Source: an uncultured Cellvibrionales bacterium
GTDB lineage: Bacteria > Pseudomonadota > Gammaproteobacteria > Pseudomonadales > Porticoccaceae
Direction: 5' to 3'
Assembly (NCBI GenBank): GCA_937911225.1
Contig: CALDQM010000104.1
Span: 7,938-71,937, forward strand
Length of the DNA: 64,000 bases
Under the pieces are notes generated by a model that saw nothing but the letters and a program-made list of their open reading frames with translations, ran no database searches and had not been told where the DNA came from. How positions within the stretch are numbered: the first letter of the stretch is position 1; every line of letters starts with the position of its first letter. Below, piece after piece: positions 35,091-42,447 of this stretch. The position numbers were made by a program, and so were the translations under genes.

Positions 35091-35540
35091 TCATACAATA
35101 CCTAAGCACATGGTTAGTGCATCTTCACGACCAAACTCTGTAGGATAATAATCTCTTCGCTGACCGATTTCTAAGAAACCCATCTTGTTATACAAACGAA
35201 TTGCTGAAAAATTAGATACTCTCACCTCTAGATAGACTTTATTAACACTATTAGCAAGATTATTGATGCCATGATTAAGGAGGTACTCGCCATAACCCAA
35301 CAACTGGCAATCATTATGAATCGAAATATTTTGTAATTCGGCTTGGTCAATAATGGTCCTAAGCACTACAAATCCAGCCAACTTTTGATCCAGTATCAAA
35401 ACCTGAGTGCACTGAAGCGATTCGATAATCTGCTGTTTAGTCCACGCATGCTTTGCATTTCGCTGCTCAATCTCAAACACTGCGTCAAAATCATTGGGAC
35501 ACATTTGGCGCACATTAACTACCGTAGTGCTGGCGATCAT
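35091..35540 (-). CDS. rimI: Ribosomal protein S18 alanine N-acetyltransferase
   Basis: VYLEVRVSNFSAIRLYNKMGFLEIGQRRDYYPTEFGREDALTM. Confidence 0.92.
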   Translation of the reverse strand: MIASTTVVNVRQMCPNDFDAVFEIEQRNAKHAWTKQQIIESLQCTQVLILDQKLAGFVVLRTIIDQAELQNISIHNDCQLLGYGEYLLNHGINNLANSVNKVYLEVRVSNFSAIRLYNKMGFLEIGQRRDYYPTEFGREDALTMCLGIV

Positions 35541-36295
35541 TGTGTCTCTTGCTGCCGATGAACCTCGCCATTTGGTGCAAAAGGTTTAATTACATCCCAT
35601 GCCTGGCGCTTTAATTTAGGGTCAGTAATCATTTCTTCCAGTGAGGGGATTACAACAGCAGTGACCTTCTCATTTACCTTAACTTGCCCATGCTTAAGAT
35701 CAAATTTTTGTTGATCTGTCAGTACCCAGTCAGTCGTTACTGAGCCTAGCATTAATATCATATGCGTCTGACTACTTTCTAATCTAGCGTTAATAAGCGT
35801 CGACAGAAAATCTCTAGCGTCTATCTCGCCACCCTGCATATTGGCGAACGGCGGCCACTGTGCAAGCTCGAACTGAGGTAAGACTCCACCCTTATGGCCC
35901 ATTGAAATGAGAATATTAGACAATAACTGCGTCTGCTCAGGACTTGGCAATTCATTATCTAGGGCACCACAGATTAGTAATTTATCATGAGGCTGCCAAA
36001 GTGCTATTTTCACCTCAATGCTTTCACTTGTGATCGAAGTCATCTCTGCAGAGGCGGCACTCTGGTCAGACAATGTCCCGCTAGACACAATCAAAGGCGA
36101 TTTCTCAGCAACTATAACTTCAGGTATGCCAGCATGTTCAGTTAGTAATTGATTGATTGCCGTTGCCCTTACTTCCGTCAGCGGTTCCTTCTTAGGTGGA
36201 GCGAGCGTCCCTTCGCTATCATCGACAAAACCTCTCGGTATATACTCCACAATACCCAGTGTTTTTAAATAATGATGGCGAAGAGCGTCAACCAC
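35537..36295 (-). CDS. holD: Probable cryptic DNA polymerase III psi subunit (pseudomonad-type HolD)
   Basis: N-terminus RHHYLKTLGIVEYIPR resembles the psi clamp-loader-binding peptide; C-terminus PSLEEMITDPKLKRQAW; immediately upstream of rimI, the holD position. Confidence 0.65.
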   Translation of the reverse strand: MVDALRHHYLKTLGIVEYIPRGFVDDSEGTLAPPKKEPLTEVRATAINQLLTEHAGIPEVIVAEKSPLIVSSGTLSDQSAASAEMTSITSESIEVKIALWQPHDKLLICGALDNELPSPEQTQLLSNILISMGHKGGVLPQFELAQWPPFANMQGGEIDARDFLSTLINARLESSQTHMILMLGSVTTDWVLTDQQKFDLKHGQVKVNEKVTAVVIPSLEEMITDPKLKRQAWDVIKPFAPNGEVHRQQETQ

Positions 36296-37848
36296 TAAAC
36301 GCCTCCCAACTGAGGATGTAGCCGTCCAGGGTTGCGCATTAGCGTCAACGCATGCAAGTACGCTTTTGCACTAGCTACCAAAATATCAGTATCGGCGCCT
36401 TGGCCATTAATGATTCGCCCCTCTTTTTCTAAACGAACCGTTACGCCTCCTTGAGAATCCGTTCCCTGCGTAACTGCATTTACAGAATAAAGTTGCAGCT
36501 CAGTACCACTCTTTATCAGTTTTTCAATCGCATTAAAGATGGCATCAACTGCACCATCGCCACTGGCTTCAGCCGCATGATTCTGATCCTGATAACGAAT
36601 AGTTAATTTTGCATGAGGCGACTGACCCGACTTTGATAATACTTCCAATTCAACAAGGGTTAGAGCTTCATCTTCGGTACCCATCTGCACATCCGATACC
36701 AGCGCCTGAAGGTCTTCATCAAAAATCTCACGCTTCTTGTCAGCTAAATCTTTGAAGCGCCGAAATGCCTGATTAAAATCTTCTTTACTGTCAAAACTTA
36801 TACCAAGATCTCCTAACCGAGCGGCAAGTGCTGCACGCCCTGACAACTTACCAAGCGACAATTTATTAGTTGACCAACCCACATCTTCAGCTTTCATGAT
36901 TTCATAGGTTTCTCGCATTTTTAGAATACCGTCTTGGTGTATTCCTGATTCATGTGCGAAGGCATTAGCGCCCACAATCGCTTTGTTCGGTTGCACTGGG
37001 AACCCAGTAATACTTGATACCAGCCGCGATATAGGCACTATGTGCGACGGATCAATCATTGTCTCAACAGGATATAGATCTTGGCGCGTTCGAATCGCCA
37101 TTACTATCTCTTCCAAGGATGCGTTACCCGCCCTTTCTCCGAGGCCATTAATCGTGCATTCCACCTGACGCGCACCGCTTTGGATCGCAGAAAGGCTATT
37201 AGCTACGGCCAGACCCAAGTCATTGTGGCAGTGAACTGAAAAAATGGCCTTATCAGCGTTAGGAACTGTGTTCATAAGGCGCTGAATCATTGAGCCATAT
37301 TCACCAGGTGCTGAATAACCAACGGTATCTGGTAAATTAATGGTTCTCGCCCCAGCAGCAATAACTGCCTCAGTCACTCGGCACATAAAATCAAAATCGG
37401 TTCGACTAGCATCTTCAAGTGAAAATTCGACATCATCAATCAAATCTCTCGCGGTTTTGACCGCACCAATCGCCTGCGCTAAAACGTCCTTCGGCTCCAT
37501 CTGCAGCTTATATTTCATATGGATTGGGGATGTAGCAATAAAGGTATGAATACGTCCTGCACTTGCCCCTCGAAGCGCTTCACCAGCACGCTCTATATCA
37601 CCGGTCATAGCCCTAGAAAGACTACATATCCGGCTATCTCGGACAGTATCTGCAATCAGTTTTACCGCATCAAAGTCGCCTTGACTGGACACTGCAAAGC
37701 CTGCCTCGATAACATCTACATTCATTTTTTCTAGAACCGTAGCTATTCTGAGCTTCTCATCTTTTGTCATAGACGCGCCCGGACTCTGCTCGCCGTCACG
37801 AAGAGTCGTATCAAAAATAACTAATTTTTCTTTTGTTGTCATGGTCAA
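36295..37848 (-). CDS. leuA: 2-isopropylmalate synthase
   Basis: [47 protein letters not shown]; C-terminal regulatory domain [16 protein letters not shown]. Confidence 0.97.
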
Positions 37849-38022
37849 ATTACCTTTTCAAAGCCATACCTATCAACTGCTACTATTGTAGAACGCAATC
37901 GACCTAATATTCTACTTGCTTATTGGCACGCCGAAAGATCACACGTTATACACAATAAACCGCCACTTTTAGCGAATCATGTCCGCTTTGTACTATTTTT
38001 GAGGTATAACAATAGATGCCCC

Positions 38023-38109
38023 TCAGGGCAGGAGAACGAGAAGAGCACGCATAGGAAGCACACAAAGTGCGCTTTCAAGAAAGTTAAGAAGACTGGTTGA
38101 GTAATTCAT
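38023..38109 (-). CDS. Putative leuA leader peptide (28 aa, 9 Leu), not in the ORF track
   Basis: ATG at 38109: MNYSTSLLNFLESALCVLPMRALLVLLP*; all Leu codons are CTN; the stop lies in the loop of a TGCCC-TGAG-GGGCA hairpin; about 175 nt upstream of leuA. Confidence 0.65.
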   Translation of the reverse strand: MNYSTSLLNFLESALCVLPMRALLVLLP

Positions 38110-38157
38110 GAATGTATTTAATCAGATTTGCGCGATAAATCCAAGCGTTGCAAGCAC

Positions 38158-38946
38158 CTATTCTCTAACTGGAATAAGCCCAATTTTTTTGCCAACCCAG
38201 ATAAATGGAGCCGAAAATGCAAATGCTATAGCAATGGCAAACAATATTCGCGGTGGGTCAATGGTAATTACCACAAAGCCCATCACCGCAGATAGAATAA
38301 CAATAAAGGGGACTTTGCCTTTTAAATCAACCTGCTTAAAACTAGGGTACTGAAAGTTAGAGACCATCAAGAGGCCAGCAGTCGCCGTAAGAGCGGCACC
38401 TAGACTGGACAACCAAAATGATGGCACTACATCATGAAGTGACCACACAAACCCGGCGACTAAAGCTGCCGCCACTGGACTGGGAAGCCCAGTAAAGACT
38501 TTGCCATCAGAAATTCCTGCCTGAACATTAAACCGCGCCAGCCTCAGCGCTGCACATGAGGCATAGACGAAAGCTGCGGCCAAACCTATCTTCCCAAGGT
38601 CGCTGACACCCCAACCATAAGCAACAATTGCTGGGGCAACCCCAAAAGAAACCATGTCCGACAGGCTGTCATACTGAACACCAAAATCGCTTTGGGTATT
38701 AGTCATACGAGCAACGCGTCCATCAAGACCGTCAAACAGCATGGCAGCAAAGATTGCCATCGCGGCCCATTCATACTGCCCACTAAATCCTGATAGTACC
38801 GCGTAAAAGCCTCCGAACAATGCACCGGTGGTCAGTAAGTTGGGCAGCAGATAGATCCCCTTCCGAACCGGTCTAACCCCCGGCTCTGAATTATTTCCCT
38901 GCTTAATTTCAACCACTTTTTCTGCTGACTCTGACTTGTTTACCAT
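38158..38946 (-). CDS. pssA: CDP-diacylglycerol--serine O-phosphatidyltransferase
   Basis: RKGIYLLPNLLT, DGLDGRVARMTNTQSDFGVQYDSLSDMVSFGVAP, RLARFN, GLPSP. Confidence 0.95.
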   Translation of the reverse strand: MVNKSESAEKVVEIKQGNNSEPGVRPVRKGIYLLPNLLTTGALFGGFYAVLSGFSGQYEWAAMAIFAAMLFDGLDGRVARMTNTQSDFGVQYDSLSDMVSFGVAPAIVAYGWGVSDLGKIGLAAAFVYASCAALRLARFNVQAGISDGKVFTGLPSPVAAALVAGFVWSLHDVVPSFWLSSLGAALTATAGLLMVSNFQYPSFKQVDLKGKVPFIVILSAVMGFVVITIDPPRILFAIAIAFAFSAPFIWVGKKIGLIPVRE

Positions 38947-39002
38947 ATTACGAATCTCGACATTACCCTTGAATTCGGTTGGCCATTATACGCCAATCAC
39001 TC

Positions 39003-39791
39003 TCAGTCATCCAAAAACTGTTTATGCATTTGGCCTAAATCAGCTTCTGACAACCCCAATGCATCCATTAGATAGCTTTTTATTGAGCCATAACGCTCAT
39101 CAATGGCATCCAAGAATGCGTCTATATTATCTCGGTGCACAGACACATAGGGAGTAAGCCATGCCCTCTCCCAACTTTCGACCTTAGCCTCTTTCAAATG
39201 GCCCTCAATGATCTCGATCAATTTGGTTGAATCATAATGCTCGCGAGTAAGAAGATAATCCTCAATGATGGTTTCACGCGGTACATCAAGAGCGGCTAGT
39301 ATCAGTGCGGCAGCCATACCCGTTCTATCTTTGCCCGCAGAGCAATGAAAAACACTTGAATTATCGGCATTATCAACGATCTGACGCATAAAGCGACTGA
39401 AGGCAGGGATAACAACATCGATGCAAGAACGATAAGAATTAACCACTAATTCATGCGAGGACTCTGGTGTGAGTTCTCCTTCAAACAAAAACTCCCAAAA
39501 GCGTGAAATATCACCAATAGATATCTGATAATCATCGACAAATTCGGCCCTAATTGCGCAGCTCGGCGACTGCGTTTGCTCATCTTTGCGACGAAAGTCA
39601 TGAATCTGGGTAACGCCAATATCTTCTAATACATTTAAGTCTTGTTCACTAAGATTAGCGAGGTGCCCGCAACGCATAATTTTACGCCACTTCACCGTCT
39701 TACCTTGGTTATTTGAATAGCCGCCTAAGTCACGGAAATTAATTCCTCCATCTAGGTCCACTACTCTTGAAAAAGTACTAGCTTTGCTCAT
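39003..39791 (-). CDS. Tyrosine-protein phosphatase family (IphP-like)
   Basis: GGINFRDLGGY, FHCSAGKDRTG (CX5R), ETIIEDYLLT. Confidence 0.9.
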   Translation of the reverse strand: MSKASTFSRVVDLDGGINFRDLGGYSNNQGKTVKWRKIMRCGHLANLSEQDLNVLEDIGVTQIHDFRRKDEQTQSPSCAIRAEFVDDYQISIGDISRFWEFLFEGELTPESSHELVVNSYRSCIDVVIPAFSRFMRQIVDNADNSSVFHCSAGKDRTGMAAALILAALDVPRETIIEDYLLTREHYDSTKLIEIIEGHLKEAKVESWERAWLTPYVSVHRDNIDAFLDAIDERYGSIKSYLMDALGLSEADLGQMHKQFLDD

Positions 39792-39836
39792 TTGACACTC
39801 GTTATTTCGTTAATTTTATGCAGTATTGCACAGGGT

Positions 39837-39870
39837 TAAAAACAAAACGACCCTCTTCATGAAGGTCGTT
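39837..39870 (-). terminator. Rho-independent terminator after ilvH
   Basis: Minus strand AACGACC...GGTCGTT stem followed by TTGTTTTT. Confidence 0.7.
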
Positions 39871-39905
39871 GATATTATAAAGCACAGCGTTAATATTCCT
39901 CACTA

Positions 39906-40403
39906 TCAATTAATACGAATAAACTTATCACCGCGCGAAATACCCGTCACGCCACTGCGTGAAACCTCCATAATACCAATCTGACTGACCGCTTCGATAA
40001 AGGCATTAAGTTTGTCACTATCCCCCGCTAGCTGAACAGTGTAGGTGGTTGGGGTAACATCGATAATGTGCCCTCGAAAAATTTCTACACAATTTTTCAG
40101 CTCAGCTCGACTGTCACTGTCAGCCGCCTTAATCTTCACTAACATTAACTCTCGCTCAATATGTGGCCCCTCGGTAAGATCAACCACCTTAATAGTGTCG
40201 ATTAACTTATGCAGCTGTTTAACAATCTGTTCCGCCATCTGGTCATCGCCATTGGTGGTCAGAGTTAAGCGAGACAACGTATCATCGTCAGTAGGGGCCA
40301 CCGCCAGCGTATCAATATTGTAACCACGCTGAGAAAACAGGCCAACAACCCTGGAAAGCGCACCAGATTCATTTTCCATCAAAATAGAAATAATACGTTT
40401 CAT
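39906..40403 (-). CDS. ilvH: Acetolactate synthase small subunit; start refined to ATG 40403, which overlaps the ilvI stop (TAATG)
   Basis: [53 protein letters not shown]. Confidence 0.95.
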   Translation of the reverse strand: MKRIISILMENESGALSRVVGLFSQRGYNIDTLAVAPTDDDTLSRLTLTTNGDDQMAEQIVKQLHKLIDTIKVVDLTEGPHIERELMLVKIKAADSDSRAELKNCVEIFRGHIIDVTPTTYTVQLAGDSDKLNAFIEAVSQIGIMEVSRSGVTGISRGDKFIRIN

Positions 40404-42139: not shown

Positions 42140-42447
42140 AATAGTTCCTCACAAATCAGTTGTGTGAAATTTTCCAGTCAGAGGTAGGCTGTAACATCAA
42201 AAGAGACACCGCAAATGCAGCATGTTCAGTCACACGGATGAGTGCTTTTGACTGACGTTAGAGCTATGGGTAATAGCGCTATCTTTGTTGATGACCAGCG
42301 ACATGGGTTACGCCTGTCTGGTACTTTTTCTGTAATCTCCAGCAAAGGTATTAGCTGGAATATCAGTACCTTAACAGTTTGCGCTGTTTAGTCAATGAAT
42401 TACCGAATGCAACTCGACTAGAACTAACGGGCAAGCCGCAAAAACGA

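Follow-up and report, generated by a model that had tools for sequence, protein, structure and literature searches.

A conserved leucine leader peptide upstream of leuA in marine Porticoccaceae, with and without a terminator-like hairpin

A short, leucine-rich open reading frame (ORF) upstream of leuA, and the RNA that surrounds it, are the subject of this study; both lie in a stretch of 64,000 nucleotides from an uncultured Cellvibrionales bacterium of the family Porticoccaceae (contig CALDQM010000104.1), which is referred to as the window. On the minus strand, ilvI and ilvH are followed by an ORF of the tyrosine phosphatase family, a pssA-type CDP-alcohol phosphatidyltransferase (38158-38946, identity confirmed by domain search), the 28-codon ORF in question, and leuA. 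Together with its ribosome-binding site (RBS), leuA extends over 36295-37856 (minus strand) and matches the Pfam domains HMGL-like, HCS_D2, and LeuA_dimer. Its start is likely the ATG at 37842 and not the TTG at 37848 because an AAGG (37856-37853) is found 10 nt upstream, and with this start the spacer between the short ORF and leuA measures 180 nt. The stop codon of leuA overlaps the start of a 252-aa ORF without a Pfam match (putative holD), which in turn overlaps rimI (35091-37848); any leucine control of leuA transcription would therefore extend to both. The exact stretch of the window is present in many seawater metagenomes.

The leader ORF (38023-38109, minus strand) consists of 28 codons and a TGA stop, encodes MNYSTSLLNFLESALCVLPMRALLVLLP, and is conserved in frame in relatives. 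The first-pass annotation of this DNA had reported a leucine-rich ORF of this length before leuA, with nine leucine codons of the CTN type and a second in-frame ATG from which MRALLVLLP would be translated, and re-reading of the sequence bears out all of these points. Six of the leucine codons are CTT, two are CTC, and one is CTG. Four of the nine fall within the last six codons, CTT CTC GTT CTC CTG CCC (L L V L L P, 38026-38043, minus strand), which are the putative regulatory codons. It had also been suggested to look for a conserved leucine-codon ORF in intergenic regions of the pssA-leuA type, and such an ORF is kept in 21 of 22 loci of the same genus and in 88 leuA-linked loci overall. 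The 22 same-genus genomes were chosen for their leuA loci without reference to the leader; in 21 of them the core CTGCCC-stop-GGGGC lies 131-257 nt upstream of leuA and ends an ORF of about 27-38 codons, and the remaining locus is cut by a contig end. When the core motif CTNCTGCCCTRRGGGGCNWCT was scanned in one genome per prokaryotic species (GTDB species genomes), 106 matches were obtained, 88 of which are followed by leuA at a distance of 88-260 nt. Nearly all of the leuA-linked matches belong to Porticoccaceae, SAR92, and HTCC2207 isolates and metagenome-assembled genomes, and the remaining matches look like chance occurrences (Streptomyces, archaea, and others) or lie where a contig end precludes seeing leuA. 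This distribution identifies the source of the window as a marine gammaproteobacterium of the SAR92 clade. In an even sample of the order (401 genomes from 58 families), the strict core occurs in the window's own family and two others only.

The encoded peptides have unrelated N-termini, and all end in two to five leucines followed by proline and the stop codon, commonly as ...ARGLLLLLP. Across 74 distinct ends, leucine at positions -3 and -2 and proline at -1 are invariant, though these positions were fixed by the search pattern. Outside the pattern, leucine is found at positions -6 to -4 in 45-55 of the 74 ends, encoded by CTA, CTG, TTA, or CTT, and the stop codon among the distinct ends is TGA (66), TAA (6), or TAG (1). 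The synonymous turnover of leucine codons and the use of three stop codons thus form a coding signature. In a small-genome SAR92 subgroup (1.4 Mb; L017-L021, L033, L048, L075, and L088, where L-numbers are labels of the relatives' leader loci) the leaders end in ...LVVxLVVRLLP or ...ARLLP; they are rich in valine as well as leucine, have two terminal leucines only, and might sense both amino acids jointly. In L133, a SAFS motif is repeated within the leader peptide.

It could be argued that the ORF is a chance reading frame, untranslated, within a conserved noncoding RNA or promoter region. It is not preceded by a Shine-Dalgarno (SD) sequence, and the leader peptides have no match in a collection of 15 billion proteins. 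Likewise, neither Leu_leader (RF00512) nor any other Rfam family matches positions 36000-40000 at E<=10 with permissive filters. A chance frame would nevertheless have to account for a frame kept across about 90 species, at a fixed distance from the promoter-like box described below, with a Pro-stop end that uses three stop codons and with synonymous leucine turnover, and we consider it very improbable. On these comparative grounds, the ORF is a genuine conserved leucine leader peptide, unannotated in the window and in about 90 relatives, and almost certainly serves as a ribosome-based leucine sensor. A search of the literature found no description of this leader element.

Upstream of the leader, an extended -10-like element TGaTTAAAT (38116-38124, minus strand) ends 6 nt before the leader ATG, and a -35-like hexamer TTGGAT (38139-38144, minus strand) precedes the -10-like hexamer by 17 nt. 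The same TG-n-T....T element, most often TGtTTGAAT, is found in all 58 distinct upstream regions of the SAR92 genus, at a distance from the leader ATG of 6 nt in 40 regions and 7 nt in 18, and a hexamer of the TTGGCA, TTGGTT, or TCGATT type lies 16-18 nt upstream of the -10-like box in these 58 sequences. No SD-like 4-mer precedes the leader ATG in any of the 58. Because the box ends only 6-7 nt before the ATG and SD sequences are absent throughout, we infer that the leader mRNA is probably leaderless or near-leaderless. The 4 nt of the gap between box and ATG (38110-38113) are hypervariable in the population, as are positions 38083, 38102, 38132, and 38205; the exchanges include G>C, A>G, A>C/T, and T>G and appear in different runs of DNA and of RNA, but neither the ATG nor the box varies.

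At the other end of the leader, a hairpin, H1 (38017-38030, minus strand, UGCCC-UGAG-GGGCA), holds the stop codon (TGA, 38025-38023) in its loop and corresponds to regions 1:2 of an attenuator. The earlier description of a 5-bp hairpin with the stop codon in its loop is confirmed, and compensatory changes in relatives add to it. Other genera and families retain the architecture of H1 with a different sequence, including CCUUCUGCCU-UAAUUUC-AGGCAGAAGG in L144, UGCCC-UAGC-GGGCA in L138, and CUGC-CUUGA-GCAG in L027, so that CCUUCUGCCU is matched by AGGCAGAAGG in the first and CUGC by GCAG in the last. H1 was also considered as a terminator; this was rejected because relatives have no U-rich tail after it and because control by leucine would then run the opposite way. 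Directly after H1 follows a C/U-rich, G-poor tract, UCUAUUGUUAUACCUCAA (37999-38016, minus strand), which is nearly invariant in the alignment and whose CCUC can pair with GAGG. In the relatives, the nearly invariant G-poor tract after H1 reads AUCUAUCGUUAUACCUCA, and the 30 nt after GGGGCA have mean fractions of 0.25 C and 0.08 G over 89 sequences. This tract is a candidate for either a Rho-loading segment or a region C.

In most relatives, AUCUAUCGUUAUACCUCA is followed by the hairpins H2 and H3, the segment GUUUUACAAU, a further hairpin H4, and finally the leuA RBS. The sequence of H2 varies freely. H3, which is present in 58 of the 89 sequences, has a CCC(C)-loop-GGG(G) core with the flanks AAAUUC...GAAUYC, and GUUUUACAAU comes directly after it. 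The post-stop sequence UGAGGGGCAUCUA (segment GAGGGGCA) finds its best partner anywhere in the spacer in the 5' arm of H3 in 48 of these 58 sequences, with pairing energies between -9 and -19 kcal/mol where the median is about -4. The core of H3 stays CCCC/GGGG while the neighboring H2 drifts, a pattern that would follow from a need of region 3 to pair with region 2 as well as with region 4. As read from these pairings, the leaders of the relatives follow the classical attenuator design (1:2/2:3/3:4) with an atypical terminator: the GC core of H3 stands about 8 nt from its U-run (GUUUU), with only a weak lower stem of A-U pairs in between, and a scan with a consensus terminator on relatives returned nothing in L005 and a borderline match in L013. 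A compact group of the L031 type, with a spacer of 111 nt, has a different H3 (CCUUCUCU/AGAGAGG) that is followed by A's and not U's.

The region after H3 holds further elements. In the window, an invariant block GATTGCGTTCTACAAT (37885-37900, minus strand) has its counterpart GAAUCCGUUUUACAAU after H3 in most relatives. Its TACAAT (37890-37885) resembles a -10 hexamer, but as a second promoter it would be without an evident -35 element and, in relatives, would be followed by the conserved H4 within 1-3 nt. The block was also considered as a repeated regulator site, which was rejected because the genome contains a single copy of it. H4 lies between the invariant TACAAT and the leuA SD in relatives; clear compensatory changes are seen in L092 (GGAGCCAU...AUGGCUCC), L061 (GGGCCA...UGGCCC), and L045 (GGGGCUA...UAGUCCC), and in the L031 group the post-stop GAGGGGCA pairs best with the 5' arm of H4. 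Tandem repeats are also found in some leader regions: L012 and L063 are among these, L012 with three copies of gctgtcgttaaa in the spacer, and six copies of gccttgagctattaca bring the spacer of L027 to about 400 nt.

The window departs from this design. In a tree of leuA it belongs to a clade of 12 species-level genomes (support 100/98), all 12 of which are without H3; L002 and L003 from the genus sample resemble the clade in this respect. L032 was examined as a possible close relative with H3 and was rejected, as only 104 nt of its leuA are available and it groups with L106. Within the clade, GUUUUACAAU has become GUUCUACAAU, which breaks the run of four U's, and TACAAT is invariant. As H3 and the U4 run have been lost together in a single clade, the terminator-like unit was lost once and as a unit. 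Region 3:4 is thus absent from the window, where region 2 finds nothing better to pair with than the nearby CCUC (-7.7 kcal/mol). Although the spacers and the N-termini of the peptides have diverged beyond alignment, all members of the clade keep the box, the ATG at 6-7 nt from it, the frame, at least two terminal leucines, the Pro-stop, H1, and the G-poor tract. The retention of these leader features despite the loss of H3 indicates that the leader has a function that is independent of H3.

A lenient terminator scan of the window's spacer yielded only weak candidates of 5-6 bp, and close relatives retain none of these as a terminator. The statement of the first-pass annotation that no intrinsic terminator precedes leuA therefore stands. 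This lack is meaningful because the genome uses canonical terminators elsewhere, namely at 33600-33580 and at 39870-39846 after ilvH; the latter (39846-39870, minus strand) has a 10-bp stem followed by UUGUUUUU. The annotation had further proposed a nonclassical leucine-sensing mechanism, which is correct insofar as there is no classical terminator before leuA here and has to be corrected for the family as a whole. Since most relatives have H3, the U-run, and, in 48 of 58 cases, a complementarity of the antiterminator type, the family is basically classical and the window's clade is derived.

One of the weak candidates deserves attention, as intrinsic attenuation could in principle be exerted by local hairpins of the spacer. 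H2b (CGCUA/UGGCG followed by UUUAUUGUGU, 37975-37960, minus strand) is terminator-like in the lenient scan and would act as a weak terminator, with H2a (AGCGGA/UUCGCU, 37987-37971, minus strand) as its antiterminator. The two overlap in the shared UUCGCU and are mutually exclusive, and compensatory or wobble changes keep both stems in L108, L100, and L112. However, the U-rich tail after H2b is confined to the window's sequence, with the tails of the relatives reading CUCCAUUG (L108), GCGUAUUU (L100), and GCGUAUCC (L112), and the H2b stem has 5-6 bp including G-U pairs. H2a lies 36-41 nt after the stop codon, and a ribosome that translates the leader would reach neither of the two hairpins, so that a link to leucine sensing is missing. 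We regard this mechanism as highly unlikely.

Alternatively, the leader might control translation, with a long-range helix that gates access to the leuA RBS and is altered by a ribosome stalled on the leader. Such a helix could form between the leucine codons and the leuA SD, as described upstream of actinobacterial leuA, where a Leu-run can pair with the SD (PMC1262725), or between GUUAUACC (38010-38003) and GGUAUGGC (37863-37870, minus strand). The latter is predicted in the RNAalifold consensus for six of six close relatives, in which the pairing survives in each of the variants GGC, GGU, and GAC. To rank the former, each Leu-run:SD duplex was compared with those formed with the binding sites of other species (82). 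In L056, L120, L071, and L083, the leader sequence CCUUCUCC is complementary to GGAGAAGG at the leuA SD and reaches ranks 0-7 of 82. For the window, however, the duplex (-11.2 kcal/mol) ranks 71 of 82 and is no better than mismatched pairs, so this pairing was rejected here; the mean rank over all species is 34 of 82, and the weak overall signal (permutation p 0.0006) is phylogenetically inflated. The 38010/37870 helix leaves the SD uncovered and is derived from six closely related sequences. Translational control is therefore improbable for the window. In the sister sub-clade of the L056 type (L004, L056, L120, L071, and L083), GGAGAAGG at the leuA SD is an exact complement of CCUUCUCC in the leucine codons, and a second spacer element, GGGACAGGAGG, also complements CUCCUGCCC; a translational version of the switch is possible there, as these complementarities suggest.

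The explanation that we favor is that of a translated leucine sensor that ties leuA expression to the level of charged tRNA-Leu. The transcript would begin at the leader AUG or 1-2 nt before it, and on such a leaderless mRNA the ribosome would load at the 5' end and trail the polymerase. With plentiful leucine, the ribosome would get to Pro-UGA and depart, and H1 would close by pairing of the Leu/Pro codons with GGGGCA. When leucine is scarce, the ribosome would stall on the leucine codons by the stop, H1 would not form, and the post-stop GAGGGGCA would be left free. In most relatives the free GAGGGGCA has a potential partner in the 5' arm of H3, which would offer a choice between antiterminator and terminator. 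As the window's clade has neither H3 nor the U4 run, premature termination would there most likely be factor-dependent: Rho may bind the leader RNA, which is rich in C and poor in G, and end transcription within the 180-nt untranslated spacer, unless stalled or queued ribosomes by the stop codon block it, as in the tna operon.

The composition of the leader is compatible with this last step. The leader ORF has more C than G in 83 of 85 sequences (0.29 vs. 0.19; in the window 0.29 and 0.16), whereas leuA itself has less C than G in 84 of 85, and Rho is encoded in the genome by a gene with a Rho RNA-binding domain (118 bits). Considered by itself, the read-out of the window's leuA by factor-dependent termination, with Rho as the leading candidate, is a tentative proposal that falls somewhat short of an even chance, and the whole explanation, including the Rho step, stands for us in an even balance of probability. 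A wider version, in which the core of the element throughout Porticoccaceae would be a tna-like Rho-dependent leucine attenuator with a stalled ribosome excluding Rho and with H3 and the U-run as accessory parts that can be lost, is rather doubtful on the same sequence comparisons. If true, this would be the first amino-acid-starvation codon-run leader shown to use Rho in Gammaproteobacteria, and on a leaderless mRNA.

A number of observations weigh against this explanation or parts of it. Regarding the leaderless start, the -10-like hexamer (TTAAAT/TTGAAT) has T at its second position, where a sigma-70 -10 hexamer normally has A and T is unfavorable, and in other genera of the family the box is found 37-60 nt from the leader ATG. 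Regarding Rho, the 180-nt spacer of the window is rich in G (0.25, against 0.14 for C), and the post-stop tract that is poor in G measures about 30 nt, which is short for a Rho-loading site. Regarding the attenuator of the relatives, equilibrium folding with ribosome masks lets 2:3 beat H3 in only 6 of 58 sequences. Since the local H3 usually wins at equilibrium, kinetic control must be assumed; equilibrium folding was set aside as an arbiter because it cannot decide a kinetic mechanism. The Leu-run is interrupted in the window (LLVLLP) and weaker, with about two leucines, in L002 (VLCRLP), L003 (AICLLP), and L049 (LRCLLP). Finally, the transcript data, which are assembled metatranscriptome contigs only, provide little help. 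Contigs from four RNA runs end at 38109-38110, and these ends were considered as a transcription start and rejected: contigs of a DNA run break there too, and polymorphisms in DNA runs occupy 38110-38113, so that the breaks at 38109-38114 reflect strain polymorphism and not RNA ends. Gaps at 38111-38205 in low-depth RNA runs are uninformative, as they are bounded by the polymorphic sites 38110-38113 and 38205. Several RNA contigs cover pssA, the leader, and leuA without a break and at comparable depth, which points to read-through or DNA carry-over, and a comparison of contig depth in one relative (leader 41.5, spacer 32.5, leuA 30.6, and pssA 43.3) gave no signal of attenuation in situ.

Some of the same observations would suit a decaying attenuator, in which the leader no longer controls leuA and is kept for the shared promoter or a secondary role, such as protection of the 5' end by translation. 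The joint loss of H3 and the U4 run in one clade, the interrupted or shortened Leu-runs, and the similar depth of RNA contigs over leader, spacer, and leuA all agree with decay. A promoter alone, however, needs no conserved frame or stop, and yet start, frame, Pro-stop, H1, and at least two terminal leucines persist in 12 of 12 members of the clade around diverged N-termini and spacers, with LLLL(L)P intact in L039, L118, L083, and L071. Decay is therefore considered unlikely, and a functional leucine sensor remains the preferred explanation.

Among known systems, the leuL attenuator of enterobacteria is the closest in position, as it also has a short ORF with a Leu-run upstream of leuA, and ribosome stalling is presumed to choose between RNA pairings in both, with 1:2/2:3/3:4 pairings present in most relatives of the window. 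In contrast to leuL, the Leu-run here is at the extreme C-terminus, followed by Pro-stop within the loop of the 1:2 hairpin; the mRNA is probably leaderless; a single leuA with two overlapping ORFs, and not leuABCD, lies downstream; and where relatives have an atypical terminator, with its core stem about 8 nt away from the U-run, the window has none. The arrangement at the stop codon has a parallel in pheL-pheA of E. coli, where the regulatory codons extend to the C-terminus, proline is the final residue, and the stop lies at or in the first hairpin, although pheL responds to another amino acid, is led by a Shine-Dalgarno sequence, and has a strong canonical terminator. The Rho-dependent tnaC-tnaAB operon of E. 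coli shares with the leader a Pro-UGA end, a long untranslated spacer (about 220 nt in tna), a C-rich segment by the stop codon, and the lack of an intrinsic terminator. A ribosome at the tnaC stop codon keeps Rho off, and by analogy the leader here would do likewise; the tna stall, however, results from free tryptophan acting on the nascent peptide, whereas here it would result from a lack of charged tRNA-Leu at the last codons. In Actinobacteria, cys leader peptides without obvious terminators have been described, for which Rho was suggested, and the LEU element of leuA has been proposed to act on translation or via a bound protein (PMC1262725); moreover, leaderless polycysteine small ORFs of mycobacteria are short regulatory ORFs at the 5' end of the transcript (bioRxiv 10.1101/834739). 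A predicted ORF start at the 5' end of the transcript is what the leader here has in common with them. Likeness to the LEU element is restricted to the one sister sub-clade (L056) in which the Leu-run can pair with the leuA SD and does not include the window, and the actinobacterial systems belong to a different phylum, with neither a pseudoknot nor LEU-element similarity seen here.

Two further features lie upstream on the branched-chain side of the locus. The ORF next to ilvH (39003-39791) belongs to the Y_phosphatase3 family, and a 24-codon ORF, MSLVINKDSAITHSSNVSQKHSSV (42230-42304, minus strand), is located upstream of ilvI and is not clearly rich in isoleucine, leucine, or valine.

Attenuation by leader peptides is textbook biology, and its worked examples are nearly all enteric. 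By the sequence criteria used here, the leader family is a new, lineage-specific form of this known type of regulator. SAR92 and other Porticoccaceae are abundant marine heterotrophs that carry a distinct, unannotated leader family in front of their leuA, and for annotation this means that any control by leucine would extend to the two overlapping ORFs downstream, a putative holD and rimI. The family also bears on whether a leaderless start couples the first ribosome to the polymerase. Moreover, sister clades that share the leader with or without the terminator-like hairpin represent a natural experiment, which allows a test of whether a codon-run leader can regulate without an intrinsic terminator, be it via Rho or otherwise.

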